Shown here: piece after piece, positions 978-12,111 of the stretch
Layout of the letters: every line of letters starts with the position of its first letter
Numbering within the stretch: the stretch's first letter is position 1
Origin: Coleofasciculus sp.
Lineage (GTDB): Bacteria; Cyanobacteriota; Cyanobacteriia; Cyanobacteriales; Coleofasciculaceae
Assembly: GCA_046539235.1 (NCBI GenBank)
Contig: JBKHHI010000172.1
Span: 1 to 12,911 of the forward strand
Length of the DNA: 12,911 nt
Reading direction: 5' to 3'
Program-made: the position numbers and the translations under genes
Notes under the pieces: model-generated
What the model saw: the letters and a program-made list of their open reading frames with translations, nothing else
Databases searched by the model: none
What the model was told of the DNA's origin: nothing

Positions 978-2095
978 AGGATTGATGTAGAGCTAATTAG
1001 CCGATGCTATTGGATTAAAGCGCGATCGCACATTAATTTAGGTCAATATTCTGCTGCGATTGAACAGTTATAAATTACCCATCGTATCAGTCAACCGTTA
1101 TCCTATCCTCGGCTTTATCTGGATATTTTAGCGGATTTACATCATCTCTATTGGCAGACAAAAGATTATCTAAAAGCCTTTAAAATTAAGCAGGAACGGC
1201 AAACCGTTGAAACCCAATTAGGATTAAGGGCGTTTATCGGTGCCAGTCGCATTCCATCGATTGTCGGGGCAAACCTCTCTCCAAACCTCTCTCCTTCAAG
1301 GAGAGAGGCTTTGAATACTCCACATTCTGTCCTCAATAGTCCCACTCATCTATTAAATACTCCCCCTTCCCTGGCAGGGAAGGGGGCTGGGGGGTTAGGT
1401 TTCATCGCCCCAGAAATTATCGCATCGGGGCGGGAAAAAGATGTGCGGGAATTGGTGGAACGGGTGACACGGAATGATCATAAAGTTATTGTCCTTCACG
1501 GTTTCTCTGGTGTGGGTAAAAGTTCCTTGGTGAATGCCGGATTAGTGCCAACCCTACGCCAAACAACCGCCAGTGGACAACGCATTCTTCCGATTTTGAT
1601 CCAAGTTTATACCGATTGGCTACAGGAAATTGGGCAGCAATTAACCGCCACGCTAGAAACACACAATATTCCCATCACTCAACCCCTCGACTCTCAAGCC
1701 GCGATTCTAGAAGCCTTGCGCCAGAGTGAAACTCAGCAGGTGCGAATTGTGTTCATTTTTGACCAGTTTGAAGAATTCTTTTTTGTGGCGAATAGAAAAG
1801 CCTTAAGAAATGAATTATTTAGGTTTTTTGGCAACTGCTTAAATATTTTACCTGTTAAGATTATCTTTTCTATCCGTCGGGATTATTTGCATCATTTGGT
1901 AGATAGACCGGGGATGGAAGCAATTGGTAATGACCTTTTGGCGCTTCAGATGACAATACGGTGCGGTTGTGGCGGGTGGAGACATTAGACGACCTGCTGG
2001 TTCGGGGTTGCGACTGGTTGCGGGACTATCTCAGCACTCATCCCGATGTCAGCGATATTGATGAGTTTTGTGCAGGGGAATTAGAGAGGGGGTAG
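978..2095 (+). pseudogene. Remnant of a TPR / nSTAND-type P-loop NTPase / WD40-repeat protein (5' truncated, in-frame stop, internal deletion with frameshift)
   Basis: One frame (mod 3 = 0) reads ..VELISRCYWIKARSHINLGQYSAAIEQL, TAA (1071-1073), ITHRISQPLSYPRLYLDILADLHHLYWQTKDYLKAFKIKQERQTVETQLGLRAFIGASRI.. It continues IAPEIIASGREKDVRELVERVTRNDHKVIVLHGFSGVGKSSLVNAGLVPTLRQ (Walker A GxSGVGKSS), IVFIFDQFEEFF (Walker B) and RRDYLHHLV. At about 1930-1945 homology jumps to frame 2: GASDDNTVRLWRVETLDDLLVRGCDWLRDYLSTHPDV..ELERG, stop at 2093-2095. That is the last WD40 blade plus the typical C-terminal tail of cyanobacterial WD40 proteins. Confidence 0.75.
1270..1400. repeat. In-frame insertion of small palindromic dispersed repeats inside the NTPase pseudogene
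   Basis: Direct repeat aacctctctcc x2 (1273-1294). Hairpin cctctctcc-ttcaa-ggagagagg (1286-1308). Perfect 11-bp stem cccccttccct-ggc-agggaaggggg (1362-1386), followed by ctggggggtt. It translates as ANLSPNLSPSRREAL...PPSLAGKGAGGLGF between conserved protein segments. Confidence 0.6.
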
Positions 2096-2141: not shown

Positions 2142-2231
2142 CGCGATCGCACTCGACCTATTGAGAATAAGAATAGAAGGATAGGCTTTATCAGTGTAGG
2201 TTGAGTCAACCCTGAACCCTGCACCGTAGGG
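2142..2231. repeat. Dispersed repeat copy A (HIP1-containing), upstream of the 2271 ORF
   Basis: cgcgatcgcactcgacct (2142-2159) is identical to 6491-6508. It is followed by related tga(g/a)aataa..ggatag, a short hairpin, and aaccct(ga/at)accct. Confidence 0.5.
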
Positions 2232-2270
2232 CTAAAATTTTCATAGAAACTATTATTCTTCCCTTGAGCT

Positions 2271-2702
2271 ATGATACCAGAATTAACCGTAGAAGCTGCC
2301 AAAATTGTATGCGGTGCAGTTATTGAAACCAGTGTGGGCAAAGCAACAGAAGAGGCAATTATTAAACTGCGAGATACTATAAAGCGCAAATTGTCAAGCA
2401 ATCCCGAAGCCGATCGCGCGATCGCAGCCGCCCAAAAGGGTTCTCAACCGGACTTCGCAAAGGTAACACAGTATTTACAAGCGGCGATGAAACAAGATCC
2501 GGCTTTTGCCCAAGAGGTGGAACGTTTAGCTGGACAGGTTGTGAACATCAGTAGTATAGCCGATCAGCGGACTGTGAATAAAAAGAGCGATCGCAGCAGC
2601 CGCACGGTTCAGGTGAAAGCCGAGACAACAGGCGATATTATTAGCGATATTAAAGCCGACTCCATTGGGCGAATTGGCGGGAAGGATACCCACTACCACT
2701 GA
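2271..2702 (+). CDS. N-terminal helical module plus low-complexity linker of a STAND NTPase, terminated by an in-frame TGA; probably once contiguous with 2811..5303
   Basis: 143-aa ORF: MIPELTVEAAKIVCGAVIETSVGKATEEAIIKLRDTIKRKL...AFAQEVERLAGQVVNISS, then the linker TVNKKSDRSSRTVQVKAETTGDIISDIKADSIGRIGGKDTHYH. It is in the same frame as the downstream NB-ARC ORF, with no other stop between them. This helical-head plus repetitive-linker layout is common at N-termini of cyanobacterial STAND proteins, recalled from memory. Confidence 0.6.
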   Translation: MIPELTVEAAKIVCGAVIETSVGKATEEAIIKLRDTIKRKLSSNPEADRAIAAAQKGSQPDFAKVTQYLQAAMKQDPAFAQEVERLAGQVVNISSIADQRTVNKKSDRSSRTVQVKAETTGDIISDIKADSIGRIGGKDTHYH

Positions 2703-2810
2703 CTACTGGTAGAAAATCAGCGCAGCACCCCACCAAATTTAGATGAAATCCGCCCCAGTACCGATAATTGGCAAGGGCGAAAATTAGAACGCCAAACTAT
2801 TCGGGATTGG

Positions 2811-5303
2811 ATGGCGGATGGGAAGACTCGTTTAATTGGAATTACGGGTATCGGTGGGTTGGGTAAATCGACGCTGGCGGCTAAGATTTACGACGAGGAT
2901 AGTCGCGAATTTGCCGATAAAGTTTGGGCAGATATTAGCCGGATTGGGTTTACCGAGTTAGCGCGGCGCGTCTTATTGAAATTTGGATTATCTCCGGAAA
3001 CCATCCAGGCGATACCTGAACAATCCCTGGGAGATGCATTAGTGAATCATCTACGTCAGGGGCGGTATTTGCTGGTGATGGATAATCTAGAAACCCTACT
3101 GCAATCTGATAGTGAGGATAACAAGAATACGTCTATTCGCGATGAATCCTATCGGCAGTTTTTCTATAGCTGGCTGCAATGTGGCGGCAAAAGTGTGGTG
3201 TTGGTGACAACGAGAGAACGCCTGGATTTGCCACCGATTCGATGTCAATGGTTATCTTTACCAGGATTAGAACCTGTGGAAGGGGCGACGTTATTGCAGG
3301 CGTTGGGAATTCGGGGAACCGAGGAGGAATTCGTCAAGTTTTCCCAGAAAGTAGAGGGACATCCGTTATTATTAACGCTGGTGGCTGGGTTTTTATTAGA
3401 AGAGGAAGAAGTTGATCCACAGATTCGGTATTTGCATCGCTATGGGTTGGCGGATATATCCCATTTATTAACGGATGAAAATTTAAAAGGATTGCATCGG
3501 GGTATAGTTGATATCTGGATGCGGCGGGTATTAGATGAGAGTTTTGGGCGGATTAGTCAGAGAGTGCAGCAATTGGTATTGGGAGTATGTGTTTATCGAA
3601 TTCCCTTCAATTCAGCCATGGCGTTGGCGCAGATTCGTAGTCTCTCTTTTGAAGGGGATTTGGAGGTATCTCAACCTCAAAATAAGCAGGAAAGATCCTC
3701 TCTAGATTCTTCCTTAGATTCTCCAGATTCTCTTAGCCCCCCTTTTGAAGGGGGGTTGGGGGGATCTAAAAGGGGCAACATCGAGACCAAAAGCATTGAG
3801 AAAGATTTTCGCCAGTTGGTGAGACGTTCTCTACTACAGGAAGAGAGAGATAAAGATGGGGGGCGATGGTTTAAGTTTCAGCCATTGATTCAGGAGTATG
3901 CGAAATGCCAAGCGGGAGATTTAACCCAGGCGCATCAACGGGCGATTGATTATTATCGTTTAAATACTCAACAACCTCCTTGGGAAAAAATAGAGGATAT
4001 AACAGAATATCTGGAACTCTTCAATCACTGGTGTGAACTTCAACAGTATATTCCAGCTTTGAACATTCTGCGCTACTGCAATGAGTTTTTAGCATTGCGT
4101 GGGTATAGTCAGATTCAGGTTAAATTGTATAATCAATTAATTGGGGAGTGGAATCGAAGCAAGTTAGATTGGGTATTTGGTGGATTACTTAGAGATTTGG
4201 GAACTACTTATTATCATTTAGGAGAATACAAAAAATCTATCGTATACACGCAGCAGTCTTTAGCTATATTTGAGGGAATTGGTAATTGCACTGATATTGC
4301 TATTTCTCGGCTGAACTTGGGTAACGTTTATTATTTTATAGGAGATTATAAAAAATCAATAGAATACTCTCAGCAAGCTTTGGATTTATTGAAAAATAAC
4401 GGTAATTATTTTCGAGATAACTTTCTTTTACAAAAGTACATTGCTATTTGTCTGAATAATTTAGGAAATGCTTACCGTTCACTAGCAGACTATAAACAAG
4501 CAATTGAATACCATAAAAAATCTTTGGATTTATTTGAAGAAATTGGCGATCACATTAACAGTAAAAAGCTCCTGATAAATTTAGGTAATGTTTATTTTTC
4601 AATGGCAGACTATAAACAGGTAATTGAATACGATAAAAAATCTTTAGCTATATTGAAAGAGATTGGTGATCAAAGTGGAATTGCTAGTTCTTTGGATAAT
4701 TTAGGCTGTGTTTGCAGTTCTTTAGGAGAATATAAAAAAGCAATAGACTATCATAAACAGTCATTATTGATTCGTCAGGAAATAGGAAATCGCAGTGGAA
4801 TTGCTAGTTCTTTATCCAATTTAGGCGCTGTTTACCATTTCCTAGGAGAATACCAACACTCAATTGAATACTATCAACAAGCTTTTGAAATCAAACATGA
4901 AATAGGCGATCGCTGTGGTATGGCAGAGACCTTCGTCGGCTTGGGTAATACTTATAGTTGCTTAGGAGAATACCAACGGTCGATTGAATATTATCAGAAA
5001 GCTATGGTGATTTGTGAAGAAATTGGTGATCGTAATAGTCTTGCTGTTACTCTAGATAATTTTGGGATTGTTTATCATTGCCTTGGGCAATATACAAAAG
5101 CAATAAAATATTTTCAGCAATCTTTAGCGATTCAACGAGAAATAGGTAATCGCAGAGGTATAGCTAATGCATTAGGAAATTTAGGTAATACTTATAATTT
5201 CCTAGGACAATATCAAGACTCTATTGAAGCTTCAATGGAGTCTATGGCGAATTATCCGCGCCTCCATCAAGCGCCAGCCTCAGCACCCATGAGAAACAAT
5301 TGA
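2811..5303 (+). CDS. NB-ARC (AP-ATPase) STAND NTPase with C-terminal TPR array (NLR-like protein)
   Basis: Walker A GITGIGGLGKSTLA (about 2841-2880). Walker B YLLVMDNLE. VLVTTRER (sensor/RNBS-B-like). GHPLLLTLVAG (GxP motif). Winged-helix region ending WFKFQPLIQEYAK. Then 8 full and 1 partial 40-aa TPR units (LGNxYxxLGxYxxxIEYxxQxLxIxxEIGxRxG). The true coding region probably starts upstream of ATG 2811; see findings. Confidence 0.85.
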   Translation: MADGKTRLIGITGIGGLGKSTLAAKIYDEDSREFADKVWADISRIGFTELARRVLLKFGLSPETIQAIPEQSLGDALVNHLRQGRYLLVMDNLETLLQSDSEDNKNTSIRDESYRQFFYSWLQCGGKSVVLVTTRERLDLPPIRCQWLSLPGLEPVEGATLLQALGIRGTEEEFVKFSQKVEGHPLLLTLVAGFLLEEEEVDPQIRYLHRYGLADISHLLTDENLKGLHRGIVDIWMRRVLDESFGRISQRVQQLVLGVCVYRIPFNSAMALAQIRSLSFEGDLEVSQPQNKQERSSLDSSLDSPDSLSPPFEGGLGGSKRGNIETKSIEKDFRQLVRRSLLQEERDKDGGRWFKFQPLIQEYAKCQAGDLTQAHQRAIDYYRLNTQQPPWEKIEDITEYLELFNHWCELQQYIPALNILRYCNEFLALRGYSQIQVKLYNQLIGEWNRSKLDWVFGGLLRDLGTTYYHLGEYKKSIVYTQQSLAIFEGIGNCTDIAISRLNLGNVYYFIGDYKKSIEYSQQALDLLKNNGNYFRDNFLLQKYIAICLNNLGNAYRSLADYKQAIEYHKKSLDLFEEIGDHINSKKLLINLGNVYFSMADYKQVIEYDKKSLAILKEIGDQSGIASSLDNLGCVCSSLGEYKKAIDYHKQSLLIRQEIGNRSGIASSLSNLGAVYHFLGEYQHSIEYYQQAFEIKHEIGDRCGMAETFVGLGNTYSCLGEYQRSIEYYQKAMVICEEIGDRNSLAVTLDNFGIVYHCLGQYTKAIKYFQQSLAIQREIGNRRGIANALGNLGNTYNFLGQYQDSIEASMESMANYPRLHQAPASAPMRNN
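3644..3770. repeat. In-frame small dispersed repeat insertion inside the NB-ARC/TPR gene
   Basis: Two related copies: ctcttttgaaggggatttggaggtatc (3644-3670) and cccttttgaaggggggttggggggatc (3740-3766). The second forms the hairpin cccccc-ttttgaa-gggggg (3737-3755). They encode SFEGDLEVS...PPFEGGLGGS within the winged-helix/linker region. This is the same C-run/loop/G-run + tgggggg architecture as 1362-1396. Confidence 0.6.
4186..5235 (+). repeat. Tandem ~120-bp coding repeats (TPR units)
   Basis: The period is exactly 120 bp in places: agtggaattgctagttcttt at 4674 and again at 4794. The protein units are listed under the CDS. Confidence 0.85.
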
Positions 5304-5568: not shown

Positions 5569-5997
5569 TCAGGGGATAATTTCAAAACTTTCACAATGTC
5601 GAGGTCGAAATAATCTAAAGTCACGCTGATCCAATGTTAATATTTTTGTACTTCCAAAGCGTTCGGCTACAGCCATAACACTTGCATCCACAAAATCAAT
5701 CCGACTATCTGCATACTCTGCCAATATTTCTGCTACCCTTTCTATGTCTTGATCGGTCAAGGCAACTAAACGAAATCGACTGGCAGATAGTCCTCGTAAA
5801 AAACTGACTACCGTTGTTATTCCCGCATTACGCCCAACTAAATAAGCCACTTCTGCCAATACGGTTTGTGGTAATAAAATTGCCGATGTTTTGCGTGAAT
5901 AAATCGTCGTCACACTTCTATGCATCGTATCTAAGCGATTCAACAGGGCAACAACAAACCCCGTATCAGCTACGGCTGAGATTCTTTCCATGTCCAC
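5569..5997 (-). CDS. vapC: PIN-domain ribonuclease toxin (VapC-like, type II TA)
   Basis: The acidic PIN residues are in the expected order: AVADTGF (N-terminal D), LAEVAYL (E), IDFVDASVMA (D), LTLDQRDF (D). The protein is about 140 aa. Start is GTG 5997 or ATG 5991. It overlaps the upstream small antitoxin-like ORF. Confidence 0.85.
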   Translation of the reverse strand: MDMERISAVADTGFVVALLNRLDTMHRSVTTIYSRKTSAILLPQTVLAEVAYLVGRNAGITTVVSFLRGLSASRFRLVALTDQDIERVAEILAEYADSRIDFVDASVMAVAERFGSTKILTLDQRDFRLFRPRHCESFEIIP

Positions 5998-6239
5998 CCC
6001 GATTTTTCAGTAATCTCTTGTTGCAGTATTTCTTCTGAACGAATGGCAAGATCACTCGTACTAGCAAATAGTCCCACCAACGGATCAGAGTCAACATTGG
6101 TATTCTCGATTGATGAGGGCGTTTCCTGAGATAGGTTAATTTGTTGGCGAATCAACCTTGACAACGCTTCAATTAATTGCATTTTCTCATCAAGAGTGAG
6201 GCTGCCCGATAGATGGAGTACCTCGTTATAATTAGCCAT
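5970..6239 (-). CDS. Small antitoxin-like protein partnered with the PIN toxin (addiction-module-component-like N-terminal helix)
   Basis: 89 aa. The motif LTLDEKMQLIEALSRLIRQQ resembles the LSxEERxxLxxxLxxSL motif of putative addiction module components. SD-like aaggaaag lies 5-12 nt upstream of ATG 6239. Its stop overlaps the toxin start by 22-28 nt. Confidence 0.7.
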   Translation of the reverse strand: MANYNEVLHLSGSLTLDEKMQLIEALSRLIRQQINLSQETPSSIENTNVDSDPLVGLFASTSDLAIRSEEILQQEITEKSGWTWKESQP

Positions 6240-6366: not shown

Positions 6367-6490
6367 AGCATACCAGTCAGTACCATGTGTTTGTCGTCAG
6401 CGATGGGATGGGAATCGGGCGCAAGACGAGACGCCCTGACAAGGTGGTAAATAAACGGGAGCTTGTAACATCTCGTTACAATGGACTTGG

Positions 6491-6561
6491 CGCGATCGCA
6501 CTCGACCTGCTGAAAATAATAAGGATAGAGTTAAGGGTTCCTCTAACCCTATACCCTCTAC
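6491..6561. repeat. Dispersed repeat copy B (HIP1-containing), upstream of ycf66
   Basis: cgcgatcgcactcgacct (6491-6508) is identical to 2142-2159. It is followed by tgaaaataataaggatag, the hairpin agggtt-cctct-aaccct, and ataccct. Confidence 0.5.
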
Positions 6562-6596: not shown

Positions 6597-8090
6597 ATGT
6601 TGCCATACGTCCTCGCGTTGGTTATCGGTCTTGGTAGCTTTGCCTATTACATGGCAGCATTCTTTTTTCCCGAAGTCCACCGCAAAAGCGACTTCCTCTG
6701 GAGTGGTGTCGGATTTTTCTACGCCCTCGTCTTGTGGGTGTGCGCCGGACGGATTACCGGGGCGGTACTCCTGAGTCAAATCGCCAGTGTATCCCTATTG
6801 GGCTGGTTAGGCTGGCAAACTCTGATGCTGCGGCGACAGTTGGCTTTACCTGAAGCCCAAACCGAAATTTCGCCCCAAGTTCAGGAAAAAATAGCCAGTT
6901 CTGGGATGTTCCAATTGGCAAAAAACCTAGTGGTTCAACCCGTCGCCCGGGTGTTCCGTAGAAAACCCGTTACACCAACCCCAGTCGTGACTGAACCGGA
7001 ACTCGTGACGGAACCAGCGACGCCAGAGACGGAAATCGCCCCAGCCAAAACGGAAATGGGAGAACCCTTCCCTGGAACAGTTACAGAGATAACTGAGGAA
7101 GTGCAACCGCCATCGGAAGAAAGCGATGTCCCCGTCGCCTCTCCCACAGAGGTAAGAGAGGAAACCCCAGAGGAAACCCTAGAGGAACCCGTAATGGCGG
7201 ATATCACTGAACCGGCTGAAGTCACGGAAACAGTAGAAACAACGCCAACTGAACGGGTAGAGGAACCCCCTGAGGAAACAACGCCGCCAGAACAGATAGG
7301 GGAATTTGCCCCAGACGAGTCTCCAACCCAGACACCCCTAGAAGAATGGACGTTAACCGAGACACCTGTAGCCGAGACACCCCTAGAAGAACAGACGTTA
7401 ACCGAGACACCTACAGAAGAGAAACCCGCAGAAGCACAGACATTAACCGAGACACCTACAGAAGAGAAACCCGCAGAACCCGCCCAGAAACAACCCAAAC
7501 AACGCCAAGGAATTAGTGGCTTCTTCAATAATCTCTTGGGCAAAGGTAAGGCAAAACCCGCTAAAACCAAGGAACCTGAGACAGTATCAGAGGATATTTC
7601 CACTTCACCCGAACCAGAAATCTCTGAATCCAGTCAGCCAGACACCCCACTCAAGGAGTCCCCAACTCCGAGTCAGGGTACAGAAGAAACAGCCGAATCT
7701 GAGGAAGCCCAACCCCCAGAAACCTCAGAGGAAACCTCAAGCGTTGACAGTACCTTAGGGGAACAACCACAGCCACCTAAACCAGAACTCCCGCAGAACC
7801 AGGAAGCCCAACCCCCAGAAACCCCAGAGAAACCAACAGCCGAGGGGACTCAACCCTCCGACTCCAAACAACTCATACGTCCGAATCCGCCGGAACCCGA
7901 ACGGATAGACGCGGCGAACCAATCGGCTGAACCTGAATCCTCAGAATCCCAAGAAATCCCCGTCGAAGAAATTGCGCCAGAATCGCAACTATCGCCCCCC
8001 GCTGAACAGATAGGTGAGGGTGACCCCAAATCCCGCCCATCTTCTGGCGAATCATCCCCAGGTTCAGAAAATCCTCCCCAGTCAAGTTGA
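6597..8090 (+). CDS. ycf66: Ycf66-family membrane protein with a long acidic Pro/Glu/Thr/Ser-rich C-terminal extension
   Basis: The N-terminal ~85 aa, MLPYVLALVIGLGSFAYYMAAFFFPEVHRKSDFLWSGVGFFYALVLWVCAGRITGAVLLSQIASVSLLGWLGWQTLMLRRQL, matches the conserved Ycf66 N-terminal hydrophobic (transmembrane) domain as I remember it. SD aaggag (6581-6586) lies 10 nt before the ATG. The rest is low-complexity and disordered. Confidence 0.8.
   Translation: MLPYVLALVIGLGSFAYYMAAFFFPEVHRKSDFLWSGVGFFYALVLWVCAGRITGAVLLSQIASVSLLGWLGWQTLMLRRQLALPEAQTEISPQVQEKIASSGMFQLAKNLVVQPVARVFRRKPVTPTPVVTEPELVTEPATPETEIAPAKTEMGEPFPGTVTEITEEVQPPSEESDVPVASPTEVREETPEETLEEPVMADITEPAEVTETVETTPTERVEEPPEETTPPEQIGEFAPDESPTQTPLEEWTLTETPVAETPLEEQTLTETPTEEKPAEAQTLTETPTEEKPAEPAQKQPKQRQGISGFFNNLLGKGKAKPAKTKEPETVSEDISTSPEPEISESSQPDTPLKESPTPSQGTEETAESEEAQPPETSEETSSVDSTLGEQPQPPKPELPQNQEAQPPETPEKPTAEGTQPSDSKQLIRPNPPEPERIDAANQSAEPESSESQEIPVEEIAPESQLSPPAEQIGEGDPKSRPSSGESSPGSENPPQSS
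7331..7480 (+). repeat. 45-bp in-frame tandem repeat (~3.3 copies) inside the ycf66 tail
   Basis: Units start at 7331, 7376, 7421 and 7466 (the last is partial). They encode TPLEEWTLTETPVAE / TPLEEQTLTETPTEE / KPAEAQTLTETPTEE / KPAEP. Confidence 0.85.
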
Positions 8091-8115
8091 AACCATGGCG
8101 AATTCTCACTAATGT
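8087..8115 (+). promoter_or_regulatory. Candidate sigma70-type promoter, copy 1 (TTGAAA-17-TAATGT)
   Basis: ttgaaa at 8087-8092 overlaps the ycf66 stop. taatgt is at 8110-8115. The motif is duplicated in copy 2. This is pattern matching only. Confidence 0.25.
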
Positions 8116-8193
8116 AGGGATAAATCAAGAAGGGATAGTCGGGAATAATCCCAACTCCCCCATAAGTACAACCACTAACCAACAGATTGAACT

Positions 8194-8478
8194 GTGACAG
8201 ACGCTAAATCCAACAAAGGCACCGAAAATCAGCCCCAAAATCAACAACTCCCTCAGAACGAGGAAGCACAACCCACGCACCCGCATCCGCCTGAACCCGA
8301 ACTGGTAGAAACGGCGAAACAATCGGCGGAAACTAAATCCCCAAAGGAAATCCCCGTCGAAGAAATTGCCCCAGAATCGCAACTATCGCCCCTGGCTGAA
8401 CCCATAGGTGAGGGTGACCCAAAATCCCGCACCTCTCCTGGCGAAGTATCCCCAGGTTCAGAAAATCCTCCCCAGTAA
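8194..8478 (+). CDS. Chimeric ORF made by the duplication: ileS-derived start (about 15 codons) fused to a copy of the Ycf66 C-terminal tail
   Basis: MTDAKSNKGTENQPQ compares with the ileS start MTEAKSYKDTVNLPQ. LPQNEEAQP...EIPVEEIAPESQLSPLAEPIGEGDPKSRTSPGEVSPGSENPPQ compares with the Ycf66 tail LPQNQEAQP...EIPVEEIAPESQLSPPAEQIGEGDPKSRPSSGESSPGSENPPQSS. It has the same GTG and leader as ileS. Expression is unproven. Confidence 0.4.
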   Translation: MTDAKSNKGTENQPQNQQLPQNEEAQPTHPHPPEPELVETAKQSAETKSPKEIPVEEIAPESQLSPLAEPIGEGDPKSRTSPGEVSPGSENPPQ

Positions 8479-8480
8479 AG

Positions 8481-8510
8481 TTGAAAGGATGGCAAATTCT
8501 CACCCATAAT
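8481..8510 (+). promoter_or_regulatory. Candidate sigma70-type promoter for ileS (TTGAAA-18-CATAAT)
   Basis: ttgaaa at 8481-8486 and cataat at 8505-8510, about 95 nt upstream of GTG 8605. This is pattern matching only. Confidence 0.3.
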
Positions 8511-8604
8511 GTAGGGATAGATCAAGCTGCTTATTGTAAAAAGGGATCATGGGGACTCATCCCAACTCCCCTAGACGTACAACCACTAACCAACAGGTCG
8601 AACT

Positions 8605-11600
8605 GTGACAGAAGCTAAATCCTACAAAGACACCGTAAATCTGCCCCAAACTGAATTTAGTATGCGGGCAAACGCGGTCAAACGGGAACCGGAACTCCAA
8701 CAATTTTGGCAAGACCAACAAATTTATCAGCGACTGTCACAGACGAATCCCGGTGATAGTTTCATCCTGCATGATGGTCCCCCCTACGCGAATGGGGCGC
8801 TGCATATGGGACACGCCCTAAATAAAATTCTTAAAGATATCATCAATAAATATAAGCTGCTGCAAGGGTATAAAGTTCGCTACATTCCTGGCTGGGATTG
8901 CCACGGCTTGCCGATTGAACTGAAAGTCCTGCAAGCCATGGACGCCGAAGAACGCCAAGCCCTAACCCCGATAAAACTGCGGCGCAAAGCCCGAAACTTT
9001 GCCTTGAAAACGGTTGACCAGCAACGTCAAGGCTTTAAACGGTATGGTGTATGGGGAGACTGGGATCACCCTTACCTGACCTTAACCCCCGAATACGAAG
9101 CCGCTCAAATAGGCGTATTCGGTCAGATGGTGCTAAAAGGGTATATCTATCGGGGAATGAAGCCCGTTCATTGGAGTCCCAGTTCCCAAACCGCCTTGGC
9201 AGAAGCGGAGTTAGAATATCCAGAAGGACATACCTCCCGCAGTCTTTATGCGGCGTTTCCCCTGACCAAAGCCACAGAATCTGTGGAAGCTAGGCTAAAA
9301 CCCTATTTAGTGGATTTGGGTGTCGCCATCTGGACAACCACCCCCTGGACAATTCCCGGTAACTTAGCCGTGGCGGTGAATCCCGAACTCACCTACGCGG
9401 TTGTAGAAGTGTCAGGGAAATCAGCCAGTCAGGAGGCGGAAAAATCCTCTAAGTCGAATAAAACAAAGGCAAAAGGATTTGCGCCAACGCCAGACGAGGA
9501 ATCCGCAGACGCAGAAGCATCAGCCGACTCAGACACGGAAGCCGAAGGGTTTAAATACTTAATCGTGGCGGCGGAATTAGTCGAACGCCTTTCTCAAACC
9601 TTGGATAAAGATCTAACCGTCAAAACTACCCTGAAAGGAGAAGAATTAGACCAGTGTACCTATCGCCATCCCCTCTTTGACCGGGAAAGTCCGATTGTGA
9701 TTGGTGGCGATTATATTACCACCGAATCAGGTACGGGATTAGTTCATACTGCACCCGGTCATGGTCAAGAGGATTATATCGTCGGTCAGCGCTACAATTT
9801 ACCGATTATCTCTCCTGTAGATGGAAATGGAGATTTTACCACCGAAGCTGGACCCTTTGCTGGGTTAAATGTGCTGCGGAATGCGAATCCGGCGGTGATT
9901 GACGCCCTGAAAGAGGCGGGTTCGTTCCTTAAAGAAGAAAACTACGTCCATAAATATCCCTACGATTGGCGCACTAAAGAACCAACTATCTTCCGGGCGA
10001 CGGAACAATGGTTTGCGTCGGTGGATGGTTTCCGGGAAGAAGTGATGAAAGCAATTCAATCCGTTGATTGGATTCCTTCCCAAGGTGAAAACCGGATTAC
10101 CGCTATGGTGTCGGAACGTTCCGATTGGTGTATCTCCCGCCAACGGAGTTGGGGTGTACCGATTCCGGTGTTTTATGATCAGGAGACGAATGAACCTCTA
10201 CTGACAGAAGAAACCATCGCCCACGTACAAGGGATTATTGCCGAAAAAGGGTCCGATGCGTGGTGGGAATTGTCGGTGACGGACTTATTACCCGAATCCT
10301 ACCGAAATAATGGTCGCACCTACCGCAAAGGCACCGATACGATGGATGTCTGGTTTGATTCCGGTTCGTCTTGGGCGGGAGTTGTGCAAGAACGTGAGGA
10401 ATTATCCTACCCTGTCGATATGTACCTGGAAGGGTCAGATCAACATCGGGGTTGGTTCCAATCCAGTATCCTCACCAGTGTGGCAACAAATGGTTGTGCG
10501 CCCTATAAATCAGTATTAACCCACGGCTTTGTTCTGGATGAACAAGGGCGTAAAATGAGCAAATCTGTGGGCAATGTGGTAGACCCCGCGACGATTATTG
10601 AAGGGGGGAAGAATCATAAACAGGAACCGCCTTATGGGGCGGATATGCTGCGGCTATGGGTGTCGTCTGTGGACTACTCAGTCGATGTCCCTATTGGTCA
10701 AGGAATACTCAAACAGCTTTCCGATATTTATCGCAAGATTCGCAATACGGCGCGATTTTTATTGGGGAATCTGCATGATTTTGACCCTGCTAAAAATGCG
10801 GTGGCGTATGAACAGTTACCGGAATTAGACCGTTATATGCTGCACCGGATAACGGAGGTGTTTGGTGAGGTGACTGAGGCGTTTGAAAGTTATCAGTTTT
10901 TCCGTTTCTTCCAAACGGTGCAGAATTTCTGTGTGGTGGATTTGTCTAACTTTTATTTAGATATTGCGAAAGATCGTCTGTATATCAGTCATCCAGATTC
11001 GGTACGACGGCGCAGTTGTCAGACGGTATTAGCGATCGCACTGGAAAATTTAGCTCGATCCATTGCGCCTGTATTATGCCATACAGCAGAAGATATCTGG
11101 CAATATCTGCCTTATCCGACTCCCTATAAATCAGTGTTTGAGTCAGGATGGGTGCAGTTAGATGAAACCTGGAAAAAGCCAGAATTGGTGGAGAAATGGA
11201 CAAGGTTACGGAATATCCGCACTGAGGTGAATAAGGTTTTAGAGCAAGCCAGGACAGAGAAGATGATAGGCTCTTCTTTAGAAGCGAAAGTGTTGCTCTA
11301 TGTCCCTGATGCTCAATTACGCCAACAGTTGCGGAAATTAAACCCCAGTGGGATTCCGCGCCTGTGGTTGCAAACCCCGAAACCGGAACTGATGATGATG
11401 GAACAGGAACCCGAAGCAGCATTAGCTTCAGAAATGCTGTCCTCACAGACAGAAGCACAAGAGTGGAACTTTAACCAAATTCTGTCTAATGTATTGGTGA
11501 CGCTACGCCAGGTTTTCAGTGAAAATCAGCGCGTATGGTTAACGGTGGGGGTAGTGGTGGCGATACCGATTACCTTAAAAGTAACCGCAACGGTATTAGA

Positions 11601-12111
11601 TTCGATCGCACGTTTACCCTTATTGGCTGATATGTTGCAACTGGTGGGGATTGGCTACAGTGCATGGTTTGTCAATCGCTATTTACTCCGCGCCCCCAAT
11701 CGGCAAGAATTAGCCCAGAAAGCGCGATCGCTAAAAACTGAGGTATTGGGTGAAGGTTCTCCCCAACCGGAACCTGCGACGACTGAACCCGCCGTCGAAC
11801 CCCCAGCGCCAGTACAACCCCAACCCCAACCCCAACCCAGAATTCTAGGGGAACGGTTTATGGTTCTCAGTAACGGGGTGGATGAGTTGCGCTATCTGTT
11901 TTTAGCCTCCCAAGTTGAGGTATTAGAGTCCCCGGATGCGATTGAAAATGCTGACTATCACAGTCAGTCAGAACACGTCTGGGTGGGGGTTGTCAAAGCT
12001 GAAGGCGAAAAGTGCGATCGCTGCTGGAATTATTCACCTTTTGTGGGTAAAATTATCGAGCATCCCACGATTTGTGAACGGTGTCGGGCGGCTTTAGCGG
12101 GCCAATGGTAA
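8605..12111 (+). CDS. ileS: Isoleucine--tRNA ligase (class I) with two lineage-specific insertions, including a CAAD membrane-anchor domain
   Basis: N-terminus MTEAKSYKDTVNLPQTEFSMRAN. HIGH-type motif PPYANGALHMGHALNK. KMSKS in GRKMSKSVGN. Editing-domain motifs (TTTPWTIPGN, HTAPGHGQEDY). C-terminal Zn-finger CDRCWNY...CERC. GTG start at 8605. Confidence 0.97.
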   Translation: MTEAKSYKDTVNLPQTEFSMRANAVKREPELQQFWQDQQIYQRLSQTNPGDSFILHDGPPYANGALHMGHALNKILKDIINKYKLLQGYKVRYIPGWDCHGLPIELKVLQAMDAEERQALTPIKLRRKARNFALKTVDQQRQGFKRYGVWGDWDHPYLTLTPEYEAAQIGVFGQMVLKGYIYRGMKPVHWSPSSQTALAEAELEYPEGHTSRSLYAAFPLTKATESVEARLKPYLVDLGVAIWTTTPWTIPGNLAVAVNPELTYAVVEVSGKSASQEAEKSSKSNKTKAKGFAPTPDEESADAEASADSDTEAEGFKYLIVAAELVERLSQTLDKDLTVKTTLKGEELDQCTYRHPLFDRESPIVIGGDYITTESGTGLVHTAPGHGQEDYIVGQRYNLPIISPVDGNGDFTTEAGPFAGLNVLRNANPAVIDALKEAGSFLKEENYVHKYPYDWRTKEPTIFRATEQWFASVDGFREEVMKAIQSVDWIPSQGENRITAMVSERSDWCISRQRSWGVPIPVFYDQETNEPLLTEETIAHVQGIIAEKGSDAWWELSVTDLLPESYRNNGRTYRKGTDTMDVWFDSGSSWAGVVQEREELSYPVDMYLEGSDQHRGWFQSSILTSVATNGCAPYKSVLTHGFVLDEQGRKMSKSVGNVVDPATIIEGGKNHKQEPPYGADMLRLWVSSVDYSVDVPIGQGILKQLSDIYRKIRNTARFLLGNLHDFDPAKNAVAYEQLPELDRYMLHRITEVFGEVTEAFESYQFFRFFQTVQNFCVVDLSNFYLDIAKDRLYISHPDSVRRRSCQTVLAIALENLARSIAPVLCHTAEDIWQYLPYPTPYKSVFESGWVQLDETWKKPELVEKWTRLRNIRTEVNKVLEQARTEKMIGSSLEAKVLLYVPDAQLRQQLRKLNPSGIPRLWLQTPKPELMMMEQEPEAALASEMLSSQTEAQEWNFNQILSNVLVTLRQVFSENQRVWLTVGVVVAIPITLKVTATVLDSIARLPLLADMLQLVGIGYSAWFVNRYLLRAPNRQELAQKARSLKTEVLGEGSPQPEPATTEPAVEPPAPVQPQPQPQPRILGERFMVLSNGVDELRYLFLASQVEVLESPDAIENADYHSQSEHVWVGVVKAEGEKCDRCWNYSPFVGKIIEHPTICERCRAALAGQW
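11350..11868 (+). other. CAAD-domain-encoding insertion within ileS (two transmembrane helices plus a Pro-rich linker)
   Basis: Between conserved LRKLNPSG and NGVDELRYLFLASQVEV lie about 173 extra aa. They contain RVWLTVGVVVAIPITLKVTATVLDSI (about 11530-11605) and LPLLADMLQLVGIGYSAWFVNRYLL (about 11614-11688), then RQELAQKA. This is the CAAD/CURT1 signature. It is followed by PQPEPATTEPAVEPPAPVQPQPQPQP, with (caaccc)x4 at 11815-11838. Confidence 0.85.

Follow-up and report, generated by a model that had tools for sequence, protein, structure and literature searches.

We analysed a 12,911-nucleotide stretch of DNA from the cyanobacterium Coleofasciculus sp. (contig JBKHHI010000172.1 of assembly GCA_046539235.1, forward strand; hereafter the window) and propose that it encodes a small cell-death effector and its sensor in a single reading frame divided by a leaky stop codon. 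The effector gene (positions 2271-2702, plus strand) ends at TGA 2700-2702, and the frame runs on, with no canonical start codon near the junction, into a sensor of the NOD-like receptor (NLR) type with NB-ARC and TPR domains. We put the probability that this stop is leaky at about 45%; if it is, one frame would yield an abundant effector made of a Bell domain and a tail, and a rare Bell-tail-NB-ARC-TPR sensor. With the same reserve, we suggest that a family of cyanobacterial NLR loci may use programmed leaky termination (UGA or UAG, then CUG or CUA), so that sensor and effector share a motif at a ratio of roughly 1:20 to 1:100. The stop-coupled junction is a new feature relative to canonical Bell/NLR pairs.

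A Bell-type effector in an unannotated cyanobacterial family

The 143-residue ATG-started open reading frame (ORF) at 2271-2702 translates to exactly the protein quoted by a first-pass annotation of this DNA, which described a helical N-terminal head, lacking any recognisable effector domain, on an NLR-like sensor. The helical description holds. AlphaFold2 predicts five helices over residues 3-106 (3-14, 24-41, 45-55, 59-75 and 77-106), with a predicted local distance difference test score of 81-88 for residues 31-90 and disorder from about residue 98 to 143; the model was the same whether built from a shallow alignment or from one of 118 sequences. Scans of the head against Pfam, PADLOC and NCBIfam likewise gave no significant match. 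The only Pfam hit at E ≤ 1 was a noise match to CDPS, and no adaptor-domain model was examined separately. The head is not, however, simply mounted on the NLR: it is a separate ORF closed by its own stop, and NB-ARC/TPR continues beyond that stop in the same frame.

The head has relatives well beyond this locus. A word-indexed search retrieved 12 orthologues, all from Coleofasciculus-like sources (60-87% identity, 89-174 residues), and pairwise ratios of non-synonymous to synonymous substitution rates (dN/dS) are 0.23-0.57. A HMMER profile built from these orthologues alone finds 168 representative clusters at E ≤ 1e-3 and 45 at E ≤ 1e-10, nearly all of 125-155 residues, and a broader profile delineates a cyanobacterial family of 443 clusters, mostly of 130-155 residues. 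Because of the 12 orthologues, the 443-cluster family and the dN/dS values, we conclude on comparative grounds that the head ORF is a real, conserved gene under purifying selection and not a chance ORF. A leader unconserved outside this locus, which the first-pass annotation had named as a refuting outcome, is at odds with these counts. The viral contigs searched held no relatives.

Family members share a common plan: a five-helix N-terminal domain of ~100 residues, beginning MEP.. or MIPE.. (often MEPLT, MEPIS or MEPVS), and a tail, enriched in G, N, Q, D, I and V, that is 25-45 residues long. Bell domains have been described in similar terms, as helical, HeLo-like domains of ~100 residues whose first helix is hydrophobic and after which comes an amyloid signalling motif; the Bell gene adjoins an NLR gene whose N-terminus bears the same motif (Dyrka et al. 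2020, bioRxiv 10.1101/2020.01.06.895854). The orthologue-only profile reaches BASS8- and BASS9-tailed proteins at E values of 1e-12 to 1e-16, and two of the family's tail types are identical to motifs in Table S2 of Dyrka et al., namely BASS8 (...NYGRDQINIE.IQGNPKIGG) and BASS9 (...AKGWQTKVEGGTAYI). Residues 110-138 of one member, P0248 from Pseudanabaena sp. SR411, are those of OYQ65653.1 from the same strain, a Bell/BASS8 entry of that study. Because the HMMER family of the head includes these Bell/BASS8 and BASS9 proteins, the head is, by homology, a cyanobacterial Bell-type cell-death effector.

This identification fits the guess in the first-pass annotation that the head could be a small helical-bundle effector that disrupts membranes. 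It only half bears out the view that the module is poorly described: the effector kind is already known, as Bell and as Bab or 'Babybell', although Pfam, NCBIfam and PADLOC hold no model of it. Bona fide Bell proteins match nothing in Pfam or NCBIfam either, so the missing annotation of the head is to be expected and carries no information. No relative turned up when PDB sequences were searched with a hidden Markov model (HMM) of 118 family members.

The Bell-type all-helical domain, as delimited by the AlphaFold2 models and HMMER homology, covers residues 1-100 (2271..2570, plus strand). Its N-terminal hydrophobic helix MIPELTVEAAKIVCGAVIE, with G15 and G23 invariant, precedes four amphipathic helices. 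A 'MEPIS' N-terminal motif is conserved in Bell-related proteins, one of which, Bab, carries out abortive infection in E. coli once a neighbouring sensor has templated it as an amyloid (Ibarlosa et al. 2024, bioRxiv 10.1101/2024.11.07.622273). The window head begins MIPELTVEAAKIVCGAV; P3 (conserved in at least 90% of the family) and G15 are retained, and its acidic residue lies at position 4, where a MEPIS-type protein would have it at position 2-3. Many relatives begin MEPLT or MEPIS. We predict that the hydrophobic helix makes the head a membrane-targeting cell-death executioner.

Most family members stand alone beside an NLR, with no conserved third gene. The profile search for the head in other settings, which the first-pass annotation had recommended, returned both these stand-alone genes and proteins in which the head is fused to NB-ARC (P0119 and P0136). 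Separately, the Bell-tail module is fused, with no intervening stop, to CHAT-TRADD_N-TIR, TIR, CHAT and GUN4 domains in P0055, P0058, P0062, P0064 and P0109, an arrangement that places two putative effectors around one amyloid-like motif.

A conserved C-terminal tail

What had been read as a repetitive linker is in fact a conserved C-terminal tail of 30-35 residues, rich in G, D, I and T and devoid of proline. It lies within residues 96-143 (2556..2699, plus strand), a segment that AlphaFold2 leaves disordered; its core, RTVQVKAETTGDIISDIKADSIGRIGG, occupies 2601-2681, and the protein ends in a His/Tyr-rich stub. The tail sits where family members carry their BASS motifs and is shared by heads that are only 60% identical (P0012). 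It is therefore tempting to regard it as a candidate amyloid signalling motif of the BASS-like kind. Compared with a KG[YFW]Q/BASS9-like HMM, the window tail scores weakly (2.6 bits; 10/500 shuffles).

Tails and heads do not travel together. Near-identical heads carry unrelated tails (P0012 and P0014; the window and P0011 of PCC 7420), and the same tail recurs on diverged heads, as though tails were exchangeable cassettes. The sequence after the stop stays constant while tails swap between near-identical heads. Such swapping would be easy if one copy of the tail served sensor and effector alike, and therefore no co-evolution would be needed. A tail-only profile aimed at a second copy of the tail failed to retrieve the query proteins themselves and so gives no information; a degenerate DNA pattern for ADSIGRIGG had only eight chance matches in metagenome contigs, in unrelated genes.

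The sensor continues in frame behind a conserved stop codon

The NLR-type sensor, one of the STAND (signal transduction ATPases with numerous domains) proteins, occupies 2703..5303 of the plus strand if it is read from the codon after the stop (Pfam NB-ARC 4.8e-14, TPR_12 1e-71). Its NB-ARC domain lies at about 2805-3416, with the P-loop GIGGLGKS at 2844-2867, and an array of eight 120-nucleotide (40-residue) TPR units, repeat family D1, at about 4190-5280. NB-ARC and TPR follow the head directly and on the same strand in the window and in all orthologous loci. The first ATG in the NB-ARC frame is at 2811, and the called ORF accordingly spans 2811-5303.

Between the stop and that ATG lie 36 sense codons (2703..2810, plus strand) which encode a linker and the pre-P-loop helix of NB-ARC (LLVENQRSTPPNLDEIRPSTDNWQGRKLERQTIRDW) and include no ATG, GTG or TTG. 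They evolve as coding sequence. Codons 2-26 differ at five sites among six Coleofasciculus sequences, and all five substitutions are synonymous third-position changes; over the 36 codons, variable sites number 2/3/8 by codon position, and the segment is conserved as protein against Limnofasciculus at a synonymous divergence (dS) of about 1.4. These codons are thus translated despite the lack of a canonical start. An NLR start at ATG 2811 can be rejected, as the codons upstream of it show synonymous changes only. By the same reasoning, translation cannot begin later than codon 7 past the stop. This leaves two routes: ribosomes read through the stop, or they initiate at CTG 2706.

On comparative grounds the sensor itself is under purifying selection and expressed. 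Its dN/dS is 0.12-0.36 over the first 360 post-stop codons, and 0.23 at a dS of 1.36 between the window and Limnofasciculus, which have the stop at the homologous place. Close relatives (the window and loci L001, L006, L007 and L010) differ in the length of the NLR ORF after the stop, which ranges between 731 and 1199 residues, seemingly through differences in the TPR region. Two 40-nucleotide G/C hairpin-like mini-elements (..CCCCCCTTTTGAAGGGGGGTTGGGGGGATC..) lie inside the window NLR between NB-ARC and TPR, at 3635-3674 and 3731-3770. Both are inserted in frame, and their translation reads ..SPPFEGGLGGS..; comparable peptides occur in an nSTAND1 remnant upstream of the head (..AGKGAGGLGF) and in the NLR of locus L020 (..PPREGGLGGV), which hints at a small mobile repeat able to sit within coding sequence.

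The junction reads TGA CTA CTG (2700..2708, plus strand), with the stop dividing the Bell-tail ORF from the NB-ARC part of one and the same frame. It is the most unusual feature of the locus and had been missed in the first-pass annotation. The in-frame stop is invariant in seven Coleofasciculus assemblies, and equivalents are found at seven other loci (L009, L010, L011, L016, L020, L022 and L033). In PCC 7420 and three metagenome-assembled genomes the head gene is followed, after exactly 108 nucleotides, by the called NB-ARC gene. Across seven lineages the stop is TGA in six and TAG in one (Moorena); it is never TAA. Decoding of the stop as selenocysteine or pyrrolysine was rejected given the TAG of Moorena, the absence of a SECIS-like (selenocysteine insertion sequence) structure or Rfam match, and the use of TGA to end ordinary genes in the same loci. 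No suppressor tRNA is encoded nearby. Frameshifting or hopping was rejected as well: NB-ARC lies in frame 0 downstream, and in the +1 frame a stop is reached after five codons.

We read the DNA around 16 family members and found three architectures. In five canonical pairs the Bell gene precedes an NLR of the NACHT (L012, L014 and L018) or NB-ARC/TPR type (L023 and L035) with its own start, an ATG two nucleotides after the stop in the three NACHT loci and 48 nucleotides after it in L023, and a called start 30 nucleotides after it in L035. These NLRs bear their own copy of the tail motif: aligned locally, tail and NLR N-terminus score z = 6.9-18 (n = 5). The second class comprises the window and its Coleofasciculus relatives, L009 (Limnofasciculus), L011 (Phormidium tanganyikae), L016, L020, L022 (Moorena) and L033. 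Here the NB-ARC frame follows the stop directly in frame 0, with no ATG, GTG or TTG ahead of the conserved FVGR/WQGR helix; the gene caller placed the NLR start of L016 inside the P-loop. A sensor-side motif is absent from the window, where tail and first 100 post-stop residues score z = 1.4, and from seven other loci (z from -1.3 to +1.4 overall). The window NB-ARC is 38% identical (E 9e-44) to the NLR of L023, which is canonical and motif-bearing. The third class consists of the uninterrupted Bell-tail-NB-ARC(-TPR) proteins P0119 and P0136.

Because the heads of stop-class lineages are only 24-48% identical, and are interspersed with canonical heads in a distance tree, the arrangement is either old or recurrent.

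Possible leaky termination and its alternatives

Several observations favour leaky termination at this junction. Read-through alone would give the sensor a signalling motif, at a distance from NB-ARC similar to that in L023, and the product would be a viable architecture, since uninterrupted proteins of the same layout exist (P0119 and P0136). The stop context is also suggestive. UGA-C is the weakest bacterial terminator (PMC5289835), natural UGA read-through amounts to 1-6% in E. coli and B. subtilis (PMC13517186), and among three contexts with C at position +4 in an E. coli reporter series, UAG-CUG was suppressed best (88% versus 51% and 71%; PMC6266110 Table 1). In bacteria more generally, in-frame stops conserved under purifying selection are an established phenomenon (Belinky et al. 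2021, PMC7918605). In the stop-class loci five of six lineages have C at position +4, where the background is 14%, and CTG follows the stop more often than leucine codon usage predicts (p about 1e-3). Miller and Albertini are said to have seen the same exception among such contexts in 1983, for CUG and CUC.

A number of points weigh against this reading. The window tail cannot be assigned to any of BASS1-10. The Foldseek search recommended in the first-pass annotation found nothing: two AlphaFold2 models of the head, compared with the PDB, gave best E values of 0.76-1.9 and no HeLo, MLKL, CC or Bab match. TGA ends more genes in these loci than either other stop (45%), which leaves stop identity alone without significance, and we rejected the argument that the stop is 'always TGA' on this account. 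Two loci have G at position +4 (L010, UGA-G; L011, UGA-GCG). CTG or TTG always lies within three codons of the stop, which would suit a weak start codon equally well. No stimulatory RNA structure was detected 3' of the stop (z from -1.9 to +1.0), nor any Rfam match. Lastly, the NLR has decayed in several stop-class loci (L004, L011 and L020).

Some of these points bear on the main alternative, in which head and sensor are separate polypeptides: the ribosome would terminate and then reinitiate at the near-cognate CUG (2706-2708), giving a low-level, headless NLR without the tail motif. The sensor would then have to activate or release the Bell-tail protein without motif-to-motif templating, for example by binding the tail directly. 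We consider this rather unlikely. In its favour, a CTG (TTG in L011) lies 0-2 codons past the stop in every lineage, and in Coleofasciculus it is kept at codon +2 while codon +1 varies between CTA and GTA. Canonical relatives are tightly coupled, with the NLR starting at an ATG two nucleotides past the stop (n = 3) or 30-48 nucleotides downstream (n = 2), and one annotation began the Moorena NLR at that very CTG. The lack of a structure that might stimulate read-through, and the two loci with G after the stop, speak for it too.

Reinitiation at CUG would, however, deprive the NLR of the single feature by which sensor and effector are connected in every characterised relative, and yet the effector tail is under selection. 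It does not account easily for the spacing either. The distance from stop to CTG is always 0 or 3 nucleotides (6 to the TTG of L011), in frame 0 in every lineage, whereas the three canonical pairs with an ATG two nucleotides from the stop are in another frame. In no intact lineage has a stronger start replaced the CTG. We know of no precedent for CUG starts conserved across a bacterial gene family.

It is very improbable that an all-in-one NLR gene is decaying here, its sensor cut off by a nonsense mutation so that only the small Bell-tail protein, or nothing, still functions. The broken NLRs of L004, L011 and L020 would fit such decay, as would the state of the upstream nSTAND1 gene in the window, itself a remnant. 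Set against this are the low dN/dS of the NLR, maintained between Coleofasciculus and Limnofasciculus with the same stop in both, post-stop ORFs of 731-1199 residues that are intact in five assemblies, purely synonymous change in codons 2-26 and the recurrence of the arrangement in lineages with heads 24-48% identical.

Scarcely credible, finally, is the first-pass suggestion that the head is an adaptor recruiting a separate effector encoded elsewhere, of the effector-associated or Death-like type (EADs; Kaur et al. 2020): the head is indeed small, all-helical and free of catalytic motifs, and the CHAT, TRADD-N, TIR and GUN4 fusions show that the module can co-occur with other effectors, but it matches no Pfam family, those of adaptor domains among them, its own family is homologous to Bell proteins, a Bell-related domain (Bab) was shown to bring about abortive infection in E. 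coli, and most members stand alone next to an NLR, which in the window is the partner immediately downstream.

Proposed mechanism and significance

We infer read-through, the amyloid behaviour of this tail, the attack on the membrane and the trigger alike, and on this basis leaky termination suggests the following course of events. Head and NLR would be co-transcribed as one unit of transcription and translation. A conserved segment at 2200..2270 (plus strand), recognised in an alignment of Coleofasciculus loci and containing a -10-like TAAAAT at 2233-2238, precedes every Coleofasciculus head gene whatever its genomic context, and is probably the promoter and 5' leader of this unit; between head and NLR we found no terminator and no convincing internal promoter. 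Most ribosomes would stop at the UGA (followed by CUA CUG) and release a free 15-kDa Bell-tail effector. A few per cent would read through to make a Bell-tail-NB-ARC-TPR protein of about 1010 residues.

The later steps would follow the example of Bab/Agp and HET-S/NWD2, from which we infer them. The TPR array would sense a cue, presumably phage infection or another conflict signal, and NB-ARC would oligomerise. The clustered tails of the read-through molecules could then nucleate an amyloid fold, which would template the identical tails of the abundant free effectors and free their Bell domains. The N-terminal helices of the freed Bell domains would permeabilise the membrane, with abortive infection or cell death as the outcome.

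Placing an unannotated cyanobacterial family of about 440 clusters in the Bell/BASS class of cell-death effectors is in itself a modest advance. The junction matters more. Whichever mechanism operates, an apparently functional NLR under purifying selection is expressed without a canonical start, behind a stop that is conserved across deeply diverged lineages. Should read-through prove true, it would be a rare case of adaptive recoding in a bacterial chromosomal gene, and a chromosomal bacterial counterpart, in innate immunity, of the read-through that produces viral gag-pol or Q-beta A1. It would explain how the stoichiometry of sensor and effector is hard-wired, how their motifs are kept matched and why amyloid tails are so readily exchanged. 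A further consequence would be that screens for motif pairs, and gene callers, systematically miss or mis-start immune loci of this kind.

Genomic surroundings

Upstream of the head, a 225-residue nSTAND1 NTPase fragment (Pfam 7.8e-26) is encoded at 1311-1988 (plus strand) and continues to about 2095. In the syntenic locus of PCC 7420 (L001) the corresponding gene is an intact one for an 1869-residue nSTAND1-WD40 protein, so the window copy is a truncated remnant of a second STAND sensor. Two nested pairs of 26-nucleotide inverted repeats (85-88% complementary), at 52-109 and 804-872, enclose ~770 nucleotides upstream of the remnant and may be a small inverted-repeat element or a remnant of an insertion sequence.

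Downstream of the NLR lies a PIN-domain (VapC-like) gene (5569-5997, minus strand; Pfam 4e-13), and an 89-residue ORF with a weak helix-turn-helix match (5970-6239, minus strand) overlaps its start. The two are probably a toxin-antitoxin pair lying between the NLR and a ycf66-like gene; a PIN/RelB-like pair also adjoins the Bell/NACHT pair of L014. The distal upstream region of the head gene (2139-2230) is repeated at 6488-6560, upstream of the ycf66-like gene; the repeat includes an HIP1-containing stretch, TG.CGCGATCGCACTCGACCT..TGA.AATAA (35 nucleotides at 86% identity, with patchy similarity over about 90 nucleotides). It looks as if the ycf66 upstream region was duplicated when a cassette of head, NLR and PIN genes, about 4.35 kb in all, was inserted. 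In G2-EDA-02 the cassette is located elsewhere, after groES/groEL, and only the proximal 70 nucleotides of the upstream region are kept.

The ycf66-like gene (6597-8090, plus strand) encodes a Ycf66_N protein with a membrane domain of 76 residues and an acidic, repetitive tail of ~400 residues rich in Pro, Glu and Thr (45-nucleotide repeats at 7330-7478). It is followed by ileS (8605-12111, plus strand), for an isoleucyl-tRNA synthetase into which a CAAD membrane-anchor domain is inserted (Pfam 7.8e-26, residues 967-1049), a known cyanobacterial feature. A direct duplication of ~400 nucleotides (7868-8244 and 8268-8655; 79-95% identity; repeat families D2, D3, D6 and D19) takes in the ycf66-like gene's 3' end, the intergenic DNA and the opening bases of ileS.

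Comparison with known systems

The Bell/BASS-NLR pairs of Dyrka et al. (2020) are the closest relatives of this locus. Common to both are a helical domain of ~100 residues whose first helix is hydrophobic, a C-terminal motif of about 25-35 residues rich in G, N and Q, and, in a filamentous cyanobacterium, a gene that is collinear with an NB-ARC/TPR NLR and lies directly upstream of it, besides the HMMER homology to BASS8 and BASS9 proteins. Unlike those pairs, the window NLR has neither a copy of the motif nor a canonical start, and its two ORFs are one frame split by a conserved stop. The Coleofasciculus pair is not in the tables of Dyrka et al., and the window tail could not be placed in any of BASS1-10. 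Their screen would exclude stop-class loci, because it required the motif on both sides.

Bab/Agp of E. coli (Ibarlosa et al. 2024) broadly resembles this locus: it combines a small helical 'Babybell' effector, with a MEPIS-type N-terminal helix, a central glycine and a C-terminal amyloid motif, and a sensor encoded by the adjacent gene. [quoted passage not shown] In the fungal HET-S/NWD2 system, too, an NLR oligomer nucleates an amyloid fold that converts a helical pore-forming effector; that system is eukaryotic, with the motif on both of two separately expressed genes, and has no detectable sequence or Foldseek similarity to the head. All-in-one proteins of the CC-NLR, Avs2 or bNACHT type, whose N-terminal helix targets membranes, resemble the would-be read-through product, and P0119 and P0136, in joining a helical head to a repeat-bearing STAND NTPase. 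The window fusion, if made, would differ in being a minor product and in carrying an amyloid-like tail between head and NTPase.

In the literature searched, we found no conserved chromosomal read-through that pairs an immune effector with its sensor. The nearest parallels for the junction are viral: the coat and A1 proteins of phage Q-beta, retroviral gag-pol and the alphavirus UAC UGA CUA signal each use a leaky UGA to make a major short and a minor extended product in one frame. These cases are viral, unlike ours, and eukaryotic context rules may not apply to cyanobacterial release factor 2 (RF2). PCC 7420 and Sindbis virus share the same stop context, UAC UGA CUA (PMC13517186).

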